A DNA stretch of 64,000 bases from Escherichia phage S127 BCL3 (OQ626344), one strand, 5' to 3'; positions 39,599 to 45,906 are shown, counted from the first letter of the stretch. The notes: a model not told the origin generated them from the letters alone. Program-made: numbers and translations.

Positions 39599-40783
39599 TC
39601 AAGCTTTAGCTAAAATGGCGCTAAACTCTTCACCAAACTCTTTTACAATCTTCATCAGGTTTGGGTATGCTTTGATCAGCTGAGCAACGATCTTGTCCCT
39701 GCCTTTACCAATAAGTAAGGCATTTCCTAAGGCGTTAGGTTTCATCATCGCCATAAAGACTGAGAATACAAAGTCTCGGTTCTCATCCTTGAAATTTTCC
39801 CAAAGGAAATCAAGGAAGTTTGCCACACAGCTGACAAGATCTTCGTCGGAGATACTTGCATTTTCCATCATATTACGAATAGCGATACAACCTTCTGACC
39901 CCAGAATCCACAAGATGTCTGGCTGCTTAGGACCTACATATTCTTTGCAGCCTCCTGCCATAATCCGACCGATTTCTGGCAAGTTTCGTTTCTTGGTGTG
40001 GTAGGTCCAAATTTCTACCGCTGCAGTGTGACCAATTGCACCTTGTAGAAGGACACGGGCCATAGCGTCAGAAATAATACCGCTGTCAAAATCGTGCAGG
40101 ATGTCAGATGCAGCAACCCAAGATCGCGGTGTAGCAAAAGATGGACAATTAATCTCAGCCATGGCCTCATAATTATCGATGGCTGATGGGACTCTTTTCA
40201 GATATCCAATTACCGAGGAGTGCACCCCATTAAGGAATGCATAGTCCTCAATAAACACCTCTGCACTGCTTGTAACTTCTACAATGATAAAGCGGTTAGC
40301 TAGAGGAGCTTCGAGTGCCGAAAGAACAGCACCGTCTGTAGCACGGTTACCTGCAGCTACAAAAACAGAGCCTTTAGGAAATGCATAGGTGCCGCACTTG
40401 TGGTCGAGCATAATTTGCATTGCAACCTTCTGCAGGTAGTTATCTGCATGAGTAAGCTCGTCTAGAAAGATAATTCCGCTCCAGTCCGGATCTGCAGGCC
40501 AAAATTCTGGAATTGCAAACACTGTACGTGTAGTTCCATCTGCCTCCACAGGGATAGGCAGTCCAGATAAGTCAGCAGGATCTTTATCTGACAACCGCAC
40601 GTCAACCAGGTTGTCATCTCGCTCACCGAACATATTATCAGCAATCTGCTTCATCACCTGGCTCTTCCCCACGCCCATCGGTCCTAAAATCAGGACAGAT
40701 CGGTTATGACGCTGGGCAAATTGAATAATAGCTGGCAACTCGCGGACAGTGATTTGACCACTTTCGAATACGTTTCTCGACAT
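39599..40783 (-). CDS. MoxR/CbbQ-like AAA+ ATPase
   Basis: Walker A LILGPMGVGKSQ; Walker B IIFLDELTHA; AAGNR and PLANRF motifs. Confidence 0.8.
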   Translation of the reverse strand: MSRNVFESGQITVRELPAIIQFAQRHNRSVLILGPMGVGKSQVMKQIADNMFGERDDNLVDVRLSDKDPADLSGLPIPVEADGTTRTVFAIPEFWPADPDWSGIIFLDELTHADNYLQKVAMQIMLDHKCGTYAFPKGSVFVAAGNRATDGAVLSALEAPLANRFIIVEVTSSAEVFIEDYAFLNGVHSSVIGYLKRVPSAIDNYEAMAEINCPSFATPRSWVAASDILHDFDSGIISDAMARVLLQGAIGHTAAVEIWTYHTKKRNLPEIGRIMAGGCKEYVGPKQPDILWILGSEGCIAIRNMMENASISDEDLVSCVANFLDFLWENFKDENRDFVFSVFMAMMKPNALGNALLIGKGRDKIVAQLIKAYPNLMKIVKEFGEEFSAILAKA

Positions 40784-41052
40784 TAGTAAAAGTCCTCTAC
40801 TTGTGTGTAAGTGTTTTCAAAGTTTTCCAAAACAGACATCACATCGGATCTGTCAATATCATACGCAACTCTCCAGCCATATGCAACCCTTTCTGCTGTT
40901 GCCTCTTCTGGCGCTAGTCGTCTGCTGGCATAAAAGAGTGTTGGAGTACACTTTCTTGCTTGCCCTCTAACTTTCCCATAATAATATCTGTGAATATCTT
41001 TGTCAAAATTTAATTCTTTTTCTGCACGAAGTTCGTACTGCTGGTATAACAT
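40783..41052 (-). CDS. hypothetical protein
   Basis: 89-aa ORF. Confidence 0.45.
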   Translation of the reverse strand: MLYQQYELRAEKELNFDKDIHRYYYGKVRGQARKCTPTLFYASRRLAPEEATAERVAYGWRVAYDIDRSDVMSVLENFENTYTQVEDFY

Positions 41053-41096
41053 CTCTACTGCTCCTTAAGCAGCATCCTTGCCGCCATCCCTACCCA

Positions 41097-41477
41097 CTAA
41101 AATGCAGTCCGAATCCAGACAAGGTTCTTATCTGCCCAATCATAGAGGCAAGTCATTGCACTATTGAATTGCTCACACGGAGGATAATCTTCTTCCATCT
41201 TGCGCATAGCAGAGCCTTGTGGGTAAAGCTCCCGTGCTGCAAACCACGCGTCGTAGTCATCAACGGTATCGAAGTAGTATACAACATCCTCCAACTCAGG
41301 ATCGAACTTTGAACTATCAGGATCCAGCTGTTCAGGGAACTTGGAGCGTAACTTGCCAGCCACAATACTTGCCAACTCGCTAACATGTTTGTTGTCCCAC
41401 TCTACCAGTTTCCCGTCTTCAGTTATGCGTCCTAACCACTGATCATGAAGGTCAACTGTTGTCTTCCACTGGGCCAT
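41097..41477 (-). CDS. hypothetical protein
   Basis: 126-aa ORF. Confidence 0.5.
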   Translation of the reverse strand: MAQWKTTVDLHDQWLGRITEDGKLVEWDNKHVSELASIVAGKLRSKFPEQLDPDSSKFDPELEDVVYYFDTVDDYDAWFAARELYPQGSAMRKMEEDYPPCEQFNSAMTCLYDWADKNLVWIRTAF

Positions 41478-41479
41478 TA

Positions 41480-43391: not shown

Positions 43392-43422
43392 TTCTCCACC
43401 CACAGAGAACAAGAGACAACTC

Positions 43423-44412
43423 ATGAATCTTGAAAAATATTATACACCAGAAGAGTTAGAGCGCTTGCTCAAAAAATACAGACGCAAACAGAATAACGCA
43501 CGGAAACGGGATATAGAGTTCAACCTGTCATGGGAAGAATATCTCCTATTTGGTAAAAAACTTTTAGGAGAGGGAGTATGCGACTATACCCTTATACCTT
43601 TCGACATGCACACAGATGAAAACGGACTGGGAAATCCTTTCTACCCATCTTTGGAGCGGATAGATGATGAAGGTCCTTATGCGGTTGATAATTGTTGTGT
43701 GGTGGGATTGAGATGCAACTCCCTAAAGGACTGCCTGGTAGATAAAAAGACCGCAGTCTTGATTAAAGACAAAACTGATCGAAAAATTGTCCAGCAGATG
43801 ATGCTCCACCTGAGCGAAGAGCGTATGGAGAAATTGAAAGGTGATTACACTTTTGAAGATTTCATCTTGCAATATGGAACGGAAGAAGATAAACTAGCAC
43901 TCTTTGACGAAGAATGGGAGGAAGATATGTCACCAATGCAGGATTTTAAAAACTTCATGGCTAATCGTGGAGCCAACAAGCACATTTCTGACATTATAAA
44001 CGAGCCTGTAGTAGAGGAGATTGAAGAGATGACGCAAAAGGCTTACGAAGAGGAAAAAGAGCCTCAAGGGGTCGAAGAAGAGCTTACAGAAGAGGTTCCT
44101 GCACTGCCTGACGATGTTGAGATTGCCAAAGCTTACACTTTCTATTGCCAGACGTTCTACGATGCAGGTATGAAAGTTGATCTGTCATTCAGCCAGTTTA
44201 AGAGCACATACATCCGAAAATGTTGTGCTTTAACTGGTGAACGTCTCGGTGCCGGACTTAAACCCCTATTAGTTACCGACTGGAACAAAGGTTTCACCAA
44301 AGGTAACTTCATGGTAGTATCTCCAATCATGGAGAAGGCTATGACAGACCTTATGAAGACCACTCGCATGACAATGACCGAGTTGGCTGGTATTTTCAAG
44401 CACGTTAAATAA
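43423..44412 (+). CDS. hypothetical protein
   Basis: Start moved to Met21 of track ORF, downstream of promoter. Confidence 0.5.
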   Translation: MNLEKYYTPEELERLLKKYRRKQNNARKRDIEFNLSWEEYLLFGKKLLGEGVCDYTLIPFDMHTDENGLGNPFYPSLERIDDEGPYAVDNCCVVGLRCNSLKDCLVDKKTAVLIKDKTDRKIVQQMMLHLSEERMEKLKGDYTFEDFILQYGTEEDKLALFDEEWEEDMSPMQDFKNFMANRGANKHISDIINEPVVEEIEEMTQKAYEEEKEPQGVEEELTEEVPALPDDVEIAKAYTFYCQTFYDAGMKVDLSFSQFKSTYIRKCCALTGERLGAGLKPLLVTDWNKGFTKGNFMVVSPIMEKAMTDLMKTTRMTMTELAGIFKHVK

Positions 44413-44445
44413 TGACAGGGGCCAATGGCCCCTTCTGGAGTTTTA

Positions 44446-45906
44446 ATGGATAGCAGAAGTTCAGAAATCATTACCGCACAAAAAGATGATGCCTTGCGAA
44501 TGCTGCAGGCCGCTCGCATGTACCTTCTTGAAAAGCTGCCGTTTTATGGCACACTGTTGTCAGGGTTGCAGTTCGTAGAAAACCACACATGGTGCTCCAC
44601 TATGGCAACAGACCATAAACGCATCTACTACAGTCCTGAGTTCATTATGGGGTTGGCAGATGAGCGTAAAACCATTCTTAAAGCATCTCTGACTGACAAG
44701 CAGTTTGAGATGGCTGAAGTTTTCTATTCCCCAAAATCTGTGAAAGAGGTGGCCTTTCTTCTGTCACATGAGGTGGGGCATATTATCTGTGATCATCTGG
44801 TCCGTGGTAAAAGCTTTGAGCCGGAACTGTTCAATATTGCTTGTGATCACGTTATCAACACAGGTCTTGTGGTTGACTTTAGCAAGCCTCCTTGTGTTTT
44901 CTTCCCGAAGGGGAAAAGCACTGAGTTCGTAAAAGGTAAGCCTTTTGGCTTCTTAGCCAGTTGCTACTGCGACATGAAGTTTCATGGATGGATTGCTGAG
45001 AACGTCTATGCAGTTCTTGATAAACAAAGAGATCAGAATAGCGGTAAAAGTAAGAACGGTAAAGGTGAGAACTCCCAAGGAGATAAACGACAAACCGATG
45101 ATCACATGAGTGGGAACGGTGGCACCAGTGATGATCTTGGAAAGGCTATGGGGTATGATCAGCCGCAACCAGTAATCAGTCAATCTGATAAAGATCAGGC
45201 CATGCAGGACTCTGGTGACATGTTGGAAGCAGCAATGCAAGCTTCAGGAGGTCGTTGCCCCGAGGCGGTGCGCGAGTTTGTCAAAAACAGAGGCAAGCCT
45301 GTAATCAATTATATAGATATTATTAAGCAACGTATGTTATCTAAAAGAAAGGCTGAGTTAACCTACAGAAAACCTGGTCGCCGATCTGGGTCTTTGACCA
45401 CCACAATGCGAAAAGTTGGAGCTATAAACAAGAATCAACACGTTATTGTTCCTGGTCGTAATCCGGAAAACACTATAGATATTGTAGTGGCTTTAGACGT
45501 TTCTGGATCGATCTCACAAAGAACTTTAAAGAAAATGTTCAATGAGATCACCGGGTTGTGCAATTTGTATAAAGAGTTTAAGGTTACGATGTTCTGTTGG
45601 TCAACCGAGGTTGGAGAGGTTAAAGTATACACTCGCGGTAACATCGATGAGATGATCAACTATGAGGTCCACTCAACATGGGGCACAACAGCCGCCTGCG
45701 TGTTCGAGTATCTGGATGCTAACATACCGAATGCAAAAGATGTCATCGTCCTTACCGACCTCTACTTTGAGCATAACTTTGAACAAAAGGCTGTTGACAA
45801 CAAGTGGAAAAAGTACGATACTTTATGGGTTCTCACCGAAGGGTATAATAAAAATTATATCCCGAGCTTTGGGAAAACTGTGGAATTAATCGAGTACGCT
45901 AAGTAA
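44446..45906 (+). CDS. vWA-domain protein with N-terminal HExxH metallopeptidase-like region
   Basis: HEVGHIICDH zinc-binding motif; MIDAS-like VVALDVSGSISQ; start at Met8 of track ORF with GGAG SD. Confidence 0.7.
   Translation: MDSRSSEIITAQKDDALRMLQAARMYLLEKLPFYGTLLSGLQFVENHTWCSTMATDHKRIYYSPEFIMGLADERKTILKASLTDKQFEMAEVFYSPKSVKEVAFLLSHEVGHIICDHLVRGKSFEPELFNIACDHVINTGLVVDFSKPPCVFFPKGKSTEFVKGKPFGFLASCYCDMKFHGWIAENVYAVLDKQRDQNSGKSKNGKGENSQGDKRQTDDHMSGNGGTSDDLGKAMGYDQPQPVISQSDKDQAMQDSGDMLEAAMQASGGRCPEAVREFVKNRGKPVINYIDIIKQRMLSKRKAELTYRKPGRRSGSLTTTMRKVGAINKNQHVIVPGRNPENTIDIVVALDVSGSISQRTLKKMFNEITGLCNLYKEFKVTMFCWSTEVGEVKVYTRGNIDEMINYEVHSTWGTTAACVFEYLDANIPNAKDVIVLTDLYFEHNFEQKAVDNKWKKYDTLWVLTEGYNKNYIPSFGKTVELIEYAK

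Follow-up and report, generated by a model that had tools for sequence, protein, structure and literature searches.

Two genes in the 64,000-nucleotide stretch of Escherichia phage S127 BCL3 (OQ626344) analysed here, which we call the window, encode a MoxR-like AAA+ ATPase and a DUF2201-family protein that carries an N-terminal zincin-like domain with a HExxH motif and a C-terminal von Willebrand factor A (vWA) domain with a metal-ion-dependent adhesion site (MIDAS). The genes lie 3.6 kb apart on opposite strands. Conserved adjacency in other phages, co-retention and co-divergence strongly support, on comparative grounds, the view that their products are cognate partners, and homology identifies the window pair as the Vequintavirus version of the gp24/gp25 module of phage N4. 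We consider it fairly probable that the two form an ATP-driven remodelling and cleavage machine of early-to-middle infection, in which the vWA protein would act as the zincin-bearing adaptor of its cognate MoxR-type ATPase.

The partnership can be seen directly in the gene order of other phages. IMG/VR was scanned with an ATPase profile, and the 80 loci returned were searched with the DUF2201 hidden Markov model (HMM) over +/-8 kb. At 53/80 loci the ATPase gene is immediately followed by the DUF2201 gene on the same strand, with a gap of <600 bp; at a further 5/80 the DUF2201 gene follows on the same strand after an insert of 0.6-1.1 kb, and at 12/80 it lies 3.5-5.3 kb upstream on the opposite strand. 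Nine of the 80 contigs end before the partner could be judged, and at one locus DUF2201 is not within the searched distance; setting these aside leaves 70 informative viral loci, 58 of which have DUF2201 just downstream of the ATPase on one strand. The same arrangement recurs in metagenomic large-phage contigs with 35%-identical ATPases, where a DUF2201_N+DUF2201 gene follows ~90 bp downstream, in Certrevirus PBES 02, which belongs to the same subfamily (Vequintavirinae), in N4, where gp24 (ATPase) and gp25 (DUF2201) are adjacent and co-directional, and, as judged from matched tblastn coordinates, in N4-like and jumbo phages. An earlier note on this DNA had described the two proteins as functional partners whose genes are unusually separated and divergent. 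These relatives, almost always adjacent and co-directional, bear out both parts of that description.

The association extends to far more distant genomes. In a 578-kb megaphage contig (L010 1-17434) the pair is adjacent, although it took a profile comparison (E 1e-52) to recognise its ATPase. The megaphage ATPase carries a ~120-aa insertion in the helix-2-insert region and escapes Pfam, and the pair clusters with genes for ClpX, ClpS, ClpP, HSP20, ribosomal protein S21 and a T4-type RNA ligase. One cellular assembly, GCA_045600625.1 (L099, contig JAZRYF010000023.1), has the ATPase and DUF2201 genes adjacent and directly after a gene for a 1076-aa SNF2/ResIII helicase. Genes for a metallophosphatase, a Ser/Thr kinase, a PP2C, a second VWA protein and a faint M50-like protein are found close to this cellular pair. 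The island has the look of a conflict or mobile locus; PADLOC matched no specific system in it.

Co-occurrence and co-divergence point in the same direction. When both proteins were compared by tblastn with 50,697 phage genomes, the ATPase was found in 812 records and DUF2201 in 673, and their profiles across genera are nearly alike (ATPase/DUF2201: Escherichia 213/213, Pectobacterium 26/26, Cronobacter 17/17, Pseudomonas 108/104). Identity to the window proteins co-varies by lineage, at 73/62.5, 59/47, 50/46, 43/43, 36/37 and 34/34% for ATPase and DUF2201, respectively. It might be argued from the positions of the window genes, 3.6 kb apart on opposite strands and ~98 kb apart in one related lineage, that they are unrelated and work independently, their separation marking a lost partnership. 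We regard this as extremely unlikely in view of the adjacency at 58/70 informative loci, the retention of both genes in every split lineage, the intact state of all catalytic and MIDAS residues, and the correlated divergence of the two proteins.

How the genes came to be separated can be reconstructed from the close relatives of the window. The 7.5 kb around the pair are 93-99% identical to >110 GenBank phage genomes, and 98.3% identical to Escherichia phage vB_EcoM-ECP32; by GenBank taxonomy these relatives are Vequintavirus (rV5/FV3-like E. coli myophages, ~137 kb). Sixteen GenBank ‘Campylobacter phage’ records (MG0656xx, host C. jejuni) are ~93% identical to the E. coli Vequintavirus region, and their host labels look doubtful. 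In Vequintavirus and Seunavirus the pair is divergent and 3.5-5.3 kb apart, whereas in Certrevirus it is adjacent. Seunavirus 4MG has the same divergent layout as the window: DUF2201 is preceded by the same Srd-like gene, and a 126-aa open reading frame (ORF) is conserved upstream of the ATPase. All 12 split loci carry the closest relatives of the window ATPase (>=43% identity), while in PBES 02 and phage A5-4 the order is still the adjacent one of their ancestors; on this comparison the split is a derived, lineage-specific rearrangement within the Vequintavirinae. Between the PBES 02 and A5-4 loci and the window, just the ATPase and DUF2201 genes are detectably shared.

A more extreme case was found by scanning viral contigs with a single DUF2201 protein as query: in a lineage whose ATPase is 59% identical to that of the window, the DUF2201 gene lies ~98 kb away in a 136-kb contig, again after an Srd-like gene. 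Both genes are retained intact in every split lineage, even at this distance. The move onto opposite strands is without obvious functional meaning, and both genes can still switch on together, since both lie near back-to-back sigma-70-like promoters. The ATPase/DUF2201 junction is also a recurrent insertion site. A5-4 has an HNH_3 homing endonuclease gene inserted between the pair (L008 7868-8362), and inserts of 0.6-1.1 kb occur there in L043, L046, L061, L063 and L082.

Turning to the proteins themselves, the ATPase is predicted to be catalytically intact. Its Walker A, Walker B, AAGNR, PLANRF and PR motifs (Table 1) are invariant in an alignment of 55 homologues down to 30% identity. The AAA+ core occupies approximately residues 1-215 and is followed by a family-specific helical C-terminal extension (~220-394). 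The predicted fold is closest to the solved MoxR-class proteins CbbQ and NorQ, and the beta-hairpin insert after helix 2 is present. Comparison with PHROG returned phrog_1297 ‘ATPase’ (E 2e-110), scans of the NCBIfam and PADLOC libraries gave no model at threshold, and phmmer against PDB yielded just Walker-A-level matches to Clp ATPases. The Pfam scores fall short throughout: AAA_14 reaches 21.2 bits (cut-off 27), AAA_5 16.9 (22) and bpMoxR 15.5 (27). Relatives of ~360 aa (31-35% identity, ~85% of the length, E ~1e-45) carry AAA_3 (PF07726), AAA_5 (PF07728) and sometimes bpMoxR, and homologues in this identity range pass gathering (AAA_3 31.7 vs 27, AAA_5 26.9 vs 22). Because the window ATPase lies under every Pfam AAA cut-off, its MoxR assignment rests on these relatives and on the fold, so that its putative membership of the class is transitive rather than direct.

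The partner matches its Pfam families outright, with DUF2201_N (PF13203, ‘putative metallopeptidase domain’; E 1.7e-28, 100.4 bits, cut-off 23.2) at the N-terminus and DUF2201 (PF09967, ‘VWA-like domain’; E 3.6e-11, 43.7 bits, cut-off 26.4) at the C-terminus, both over gathering; in PHROG it matches phrog_1314 (E 7e-123). The HExxH zincin-like domain spans approximately residues 1-200 and is joined by a disordered Gly/Asp/Lys-rich linker (~200-230) and a helical region to the vWA domain (~340-486). The predicted model (predicted local distance difference test, pLDDT, 80) comprises a confident N-terminal helical domain, a linker at pLDDT <50 over residues 200-228, and a C-terminal alpha/beta domain with a vWA fold and a full MIDAS (DxSxS...T...D). 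Across 29 DUF2201 homologues the MIDAS residues D351, S353, S355, T414 and D438 are invariant, as are H108 and H112 of the HExxH motif and an NxAxDxxxN segment, while E109 of HExxH is kept in >=90%. Of two candidate start codons we prefer ATG 44446 because GGAG precedes it by five bases, whereas the alternative ATG 44425 falls within a hairpin; the former is also the start annotated in GenBank relatives.

Both ORFs and their motifs were therefore as the earlier note had described them, and its reading of the HEVGH/DVSGS protein as a peptidase-like and vWA protein agrees with the Pfam assignments. The PHROG matches of both proteins and the Pfam matches of the partner are far stronger than chance would give. 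Profile searches of the kind it proposed placed the partner outright; the ATPase itself stays below the AAA_5 cut-off that its relatives pass.

The annotation history of the partner is less orderly. PHROG 1314 gives the DUF2201 family the name ‘HNH endonuclease’, which has passed from there into RefSeq, including N4 gp25 (L009 5165-6307), PBES 02 (L006 7448-9007) and 4MG, and several GenBank Vequintavirus records call the DUF2201 protein an ‘anti-sigma factor’, apparently copied from the neighbouring gene. The DUF2201 proteins carry no HNH domain. A side benefit of the present analysis is that it flags this widely spread mis-annotation. In the GenBank relatives of the window the partner is otherwise labelled ‘putative metallopeptidase domain’, ‘VWA-like domain-containing protein’ or ‘metal-dependent peptidase’, and the ATPase gene already bears the label ‘MoxR ATPase’.

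The closest described counterpart is the N4 module. Since 2009 the literature has listed N4 gp24 as an ‘AAA ATPase’ and gp25 as a ‘vWFA’ protein, both of unknown function (PMC2784036), and they are two of only 14 N4-like core genes, described as middle transcripts (PMC4193335). The window ATPase matches N4-like ATPases by tblastn (e.g. E 3e-21) and the window DUF2201 protein matches N4 gp25 (E 2e-13), itself a canonical DUF2201_N + DUF2201 protein (E 3e-87, 1e-46). The contexts are alike in being non-structural and middle-phase, the N4 pair lying next to nucleotide-metabolism genes. The pairs differ in that the N4 genes are adjacent and co-directional, sequence identity is merely ~21-28%, the window ATPase is longer by its C-terminal helical extension, and the window partner has a longer linker and inserts in its zincin domain.

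A second counterpart was described by Iyer et al. in 2021, who reported a MoxR AAA+ / metallopeptidase-vWA chaperone-cochaperone pair in group 2.2 jumbo phages and proposed that it serves to assemble virions and process structural proteins (PMC7824862). This pair has the same domain architecture and belongs to the same family, and tblastn matches for both window proteins were obtained in Atu_ph07, pEa_SNUABM_44, Muenster, 7t3 and WPEC3/5. It was described solely for jumbo phages, as adjacent genes with an assembly role, whereas the window derives from a 137-kb non-jumbo myophage in which the pair is split and its context is of early/middle type. Novelty had thus been overstated in the earlier note: the genes are annotated in GenBank relatives, close sequenced isolates exist, and the pair type is published (PMC7824862, PMC4193335).

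Among cellular systems, the coupling of MoxR ATPases to vWA proteins has been reviewed (PMC7159879). CbbQ/CbbO and NorQ/NorD provide the closest ATPase folds, and in each the ATPase acts with a vWA partner. CbbO and NorD, which have no zincin domain, serve Rubisco and nitric oxide reductase; the phage ATPase differs from CbbQ and NorQ in its ~120 extra C-terminal residues and shows no sequence-level family match. The resemblance raises the question of whether the phage pair might instead insert a metal or cofactor, or activate an enzyme, in the manner of CobS/CobT, BchI/BchD, NorQ/NorD or CbbQ/CbbO, its client being a metalloenzyme of phage or host, with HExxH binding metal and cleaving nothing. 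HExxH sites do bind zinc, and NorD and BchD are among the many proteins whose vWA domains resemble that of the partner. Neither Pfam nor NCBIfam, however, returned a match to a CobS, CobT or chelatase family, the vWA subunits of these systems all lack a zincin domain, no conserved metalloenzyme gene accompanies the pair in N4-like, rV5-like or jumbo phages, and the nearly invariant Glu of HExxH argues for hydrolysis. We consider an insertase role very unlikely, and a CobS/CobT pair, one of the functions suggested in the earlier note, or a BchI/BchD chelatase was rejected on the missing profile matches and on the HExxH domain of the partner, which CobT and BchD do not have.

We are able to propose a mechanism for the pair that is consistent with these observations. 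Because its predicted fold is CbbQ/NorQ-like, the ATPase would assemble as a ring. If MoxR-vWA systems such as CbbQ/CbbO and NorQ/NorD are a guide (PMC7159879), the DUF2201 partner would then dock on this ring, and its MIDAS may capture an acidic side chain or carboxylate of a target protein. ATP hydrolysis would remodel or partly unfold the captured target, which the tethered metallopeptidase domain would cleave, a step suggested by the flexibility of the linker and the conservation of HExxH. The machine would act inside the infected cell on a host or phage protein, and the sigma-70-like promoters, the neighbours of the pair in the window, the replication and nucleotide-metabolism genes that accompany it elsewhere and the middle timing of N4 together favour action in the early-to-middle phase. 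The label ‘peptidase’ for the partner is a well-founded prediction and not a demonstrated fold assignment, given that the N-terminal domain matches no solved structure.

The proposed coupling of ATP-driven remodelling to a zinc peptidase recalls FtsH. FtsH is an AAA+ protein fused to an HExxH M41 peptidase. The two are not homologous as units: the AAA+ clades differ (MoxR/helix-2-insert in the window, classic in FtsH), as do the zincin families, and the window components are separate polypeptides with an additional vWA specificity domain.

Several observations weigh against this model. The Pfam scan assigned the window ATPase to no AAA family at gathering score and did not list AAA_3. For the partner, a sequence search of PDB gave no match, both fold searches gave vWA matches alone and none to a solved structure for the N-terminal domain, and a profile of that domain reached just a non-significant, HExxH-motif-level match to M48/BepA peptidases (E 0.35-1.7). 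One distant DUF2201 homologue has HAVCH, and so is without the catalytic Glu. The promoters in the window are consensus matches and not mapped transcription starts, and a literature search found no Vequintavirus transcript data, nor any interaction, ATPase, protease or phenotype data for any member of the family. Finally, the published proposal of Iyer et al. assigns the pair to virion assembly instead (PMC7824862).

That proposal deserves careful consideration. It holds that the pair is an assembly chaperone with a processing peptidase, which folds, assembles and trims structural proteins of the tail, fibres or head, and it was made for group 2.2 jumbo phages by analogy with MoxR-vWA tail assembly in Acidianus two-tailed virus (PMC7824862), a precedent cited also in PMC7159879. 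Compared by description only, this virus does encode a MoxR (p618) and vWA (p892) pair involved in tail development; it is an archaeal virus whose pair has no peptidase domain and a structural role outside the host. The placing of the megaphage copy among chaperone and protease genes (HSP20, ClpX/S/P) fits an assembly role, as does the fact that all phage groups carrying the pair have large, complex virions. The genomic context, however, argues against it. In the loci examined the pair is never within a structural module. In the window its neighbours are rIIA/rIIB, a helicase gene and small early-type ORFs, and the two genes stand behind sigma-70-like promoters in an early-type block of such ORFs; in other phages the pair lies between RNA polymerase, helicase, DNA polymerase, exonuclease and thymidylate synthase genes, and dCTP deaminase is likewise among the neighbours. 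N4 gp24/25 are reported as middle rather than late, and both are missing among the N4 homologues of the N4-like virion-protein table (PMC4193335). We therefore judge virion assembly to be unlikely. The earlier note had suggested a chaperone/peptidase module for virion or host remodelling. This is the best fit of the three functions it offered, although the context is that of the early/middle phase rather than of assembly.

If the remodelling and cleavage machine does act on the host, its target may be an immunity or housekeeping protein, a special case of the model in which the pair serves as a counter-defence or host-takeover protease. Such a role would account for the core status of the pair in several virulent phage groups that are unrelated to one another, and it is in keeping with the early/middle context, with the Srd-like gene of host-takeover type that is linked in every split lineage, with the cellular copy in an island with SNF2 helicase, kinase, PP2C and VWA protein genes, and with the frequency of MoxR-vWA modules in conflict systems (PMC7159879). 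Set against this, PADLOC matches nothing beyond P-loop noise, and the two proteins diverge slowly and in step, unlike the rapid diversification usual for arms-race genes; we think this narrower version improbable. Known defence systems were rejected as candidates, since PADLOC gives P-loop-level matches with E >5e-4 and none for the vWA protein, and the conflict system raised in the earlier note accordingly gained no direct support. The MoxR-vWA ternary conflict systems of Kaur et al. 2020 (VMAP, beta-propeller and FtsH types) were likewise rejected, with bpMoxR at 15.5 bits and no third conserved component in the neighbourhoods seen.

Table 1. Features of the ATPase and DUF2201 region, in window coordinates.
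Feature	Position	Strand	Evidence or remarks
MoxR-like AAA+ ATPase, 394 aa, N4 gp24 homologue	39599..40783	-	ORF call and translation
Walker A GPMGVGKS	40661-40684	-	translation
Walker B FLDE	40457-40468	-	translation
Sensor-1 motif AAGNR	40343-40357	-	translation
Arginine-finger motif PLANRF	40289-40306	-	translation
Sensor-2 PR	40124-40129	-	translation
DUF2201-family protein, 486 aa, N4 gp25 homologue	44446..45906	+	ORF call, Pfam
HEVGH (HExxH)	44767-44781	+	translation
DVSGS (MIDAS)	45496-45510	+	translation
Sigma-70-like promoter TTGACT-17-TATAGT, at the head of the gene block whose last member named here is the ATPase	43349-43321	-	consensus match; conserved in Vequintavirus genomes
Sigma-70-like extended -10 promoter TTGACA-17-TGgTAAGAT, heading the Srd-like and DUF2201 genes	43363-43391	+	consensus match
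Best promoter-like match of the region, TTGACA-17-TATTAT, 11/12	41006-40978	-	inside the 89-aa ORF, ~195 bp upstream of the ATPase start
Srd-like gene, 329 aa, GenBank ‘anti-sigma factor’; first gene of its unit	43423..44412	+	phrog_3118 E 2.8e-111
Perfect GC-rich palindromic hairpin AGGGGCCAATGGCCCCT	44417..44433	.	between the Srd-like gene and the DUF2201 start
89-aa ORF, stop overlapping the ATPase start (TAATG)	40783..41052	-	phrog_13164 E 6.7e-60; conserved beside the ATPase in L012
126-aa ORF directly downstream of the ATPase, Shine-Dalgarno GGAGG, last before the terminator	39209..39589	-	phrog_12370; conserved in L012
Terminator-like GC hairpin CCCCGCTTCGGCGGGG then T-rich tail, closing the ATPase unit	39195-39180	-	sequence

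The transcription signals of the region would allow joint expression of the pair. Two promoters stand back to back inside the 142-bp intergenic gap between the divergent gene blocks, and the TTGACA hexamer of the plus-strand promoter is invariant, including in Seunavirus 4MG. GC skew flips sign exactly at this divergent promoter region (from ~-0.15 to ~+0.11/+0.17, window ~42000-46000), following the switch of coding strand. The earlier note had both genes transcribed from this promoter pair. Both promoters are present, but the ATPase sits six ORFs and 2.5 kb downstream of the minus-strand promoter, and a stronger site lies nearer to it. As this best promoter-like site is just upstream, within the overlapping ORF, the ATPase may also have a promoter of its own. 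The minus-strand unit comprises six ORFs followed by the ATPase, the 126-aa ORF and the terminator-like hairpin; the 89-aa ORF is probably translationally coupled to the ATPase, given the overlap of its stop with the ATPase start.

On the plus strand the order is Srd-like gene, GC hairpin and DUF2201, and the hairpin could be an attenuator or an RNA-stability element. Besides its main PHROG assignment the Srd-like protein has weaker matches to PHROGs for endonuclease VII, for a ‘decoy of host sigma70’ and for T4 Srd over approximately residues 15-130 of a longer 349-aa ORF call; it matches no Pfam family. The gene stands upstream of DUF2201 in every split lineage examined (4MG, L012, L022, L092), including that with the ~98 kb separation, and is absent at loci where the ATPase and DUF2201 genes adjoin. 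A relationship between the Srd-like gene and the A5-4 homing endonuclease was rejected (E 1.9), the A5-4 insert being a genuine HNH_3 protein and the Srd-like protein one without a Pfam family.

Some further features of the neighbourhood were recorded. A SleB/CwlJ-type cell-wall hydrolase (Hydrolase_2, E 2e-19) with a GTG start and a hydrophobic N-terminus is encoded at 38659-39159 (-), and after it come rIIA (HATPase_c_3) and then rIIB, the second coordinate range given being 36680-38662 (-). In N4, rIIA is likewise found a few kb downstream of gp24/gp25. A 299-aa protein at 42381-43280 (-), widely annotated as ‘putative alpha 1-3 fucosyltransferase’, finds no backing for that name in Pfam, NCBIfam or PADLOC, and its sole match is a PHROG without known function.

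The genes and the pair type were already known; what is new is that the Vequintavirus pair is explicitly joined to N4 gp24/gp25 and to its jumbo-phage counterpart, that the split is reconstructed as a rearrangement particular to one lineage after which both genes were kept, and that context yields evidence against a late structural role. The early/middle-phase setting argues against the published virion-assembly proposal. That the partnership has outlived the separation of its genes is good evidence from nature that selection acts on protein-protein function rather than operon structure.

More generally, the pair is among the most widely conserved phage modules without known function, occurring in Schitoviridae, Vequintavirinae, many jumbo phages, Rak2-like ones among them, and megaphages. 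We put forward, as a speculative extension that we hold only tentatively, the idea that the N4 gp24/gp25-type module is a widespread two-component ATP-dependent metalloprotease of phages, in which a MoxR ring and a MIDAS-guided zincin adaptor would act early in infection to process or destroy one particular host protein and so aid takeover or counter-defence. E. coli Vequintaviruses, such as those of the BASEL collection, are easily grown and engineered and so offer a practical means of finding the target. Should the module indeed prove to be a host-directed ATP-dependent protease, its interest would rise.

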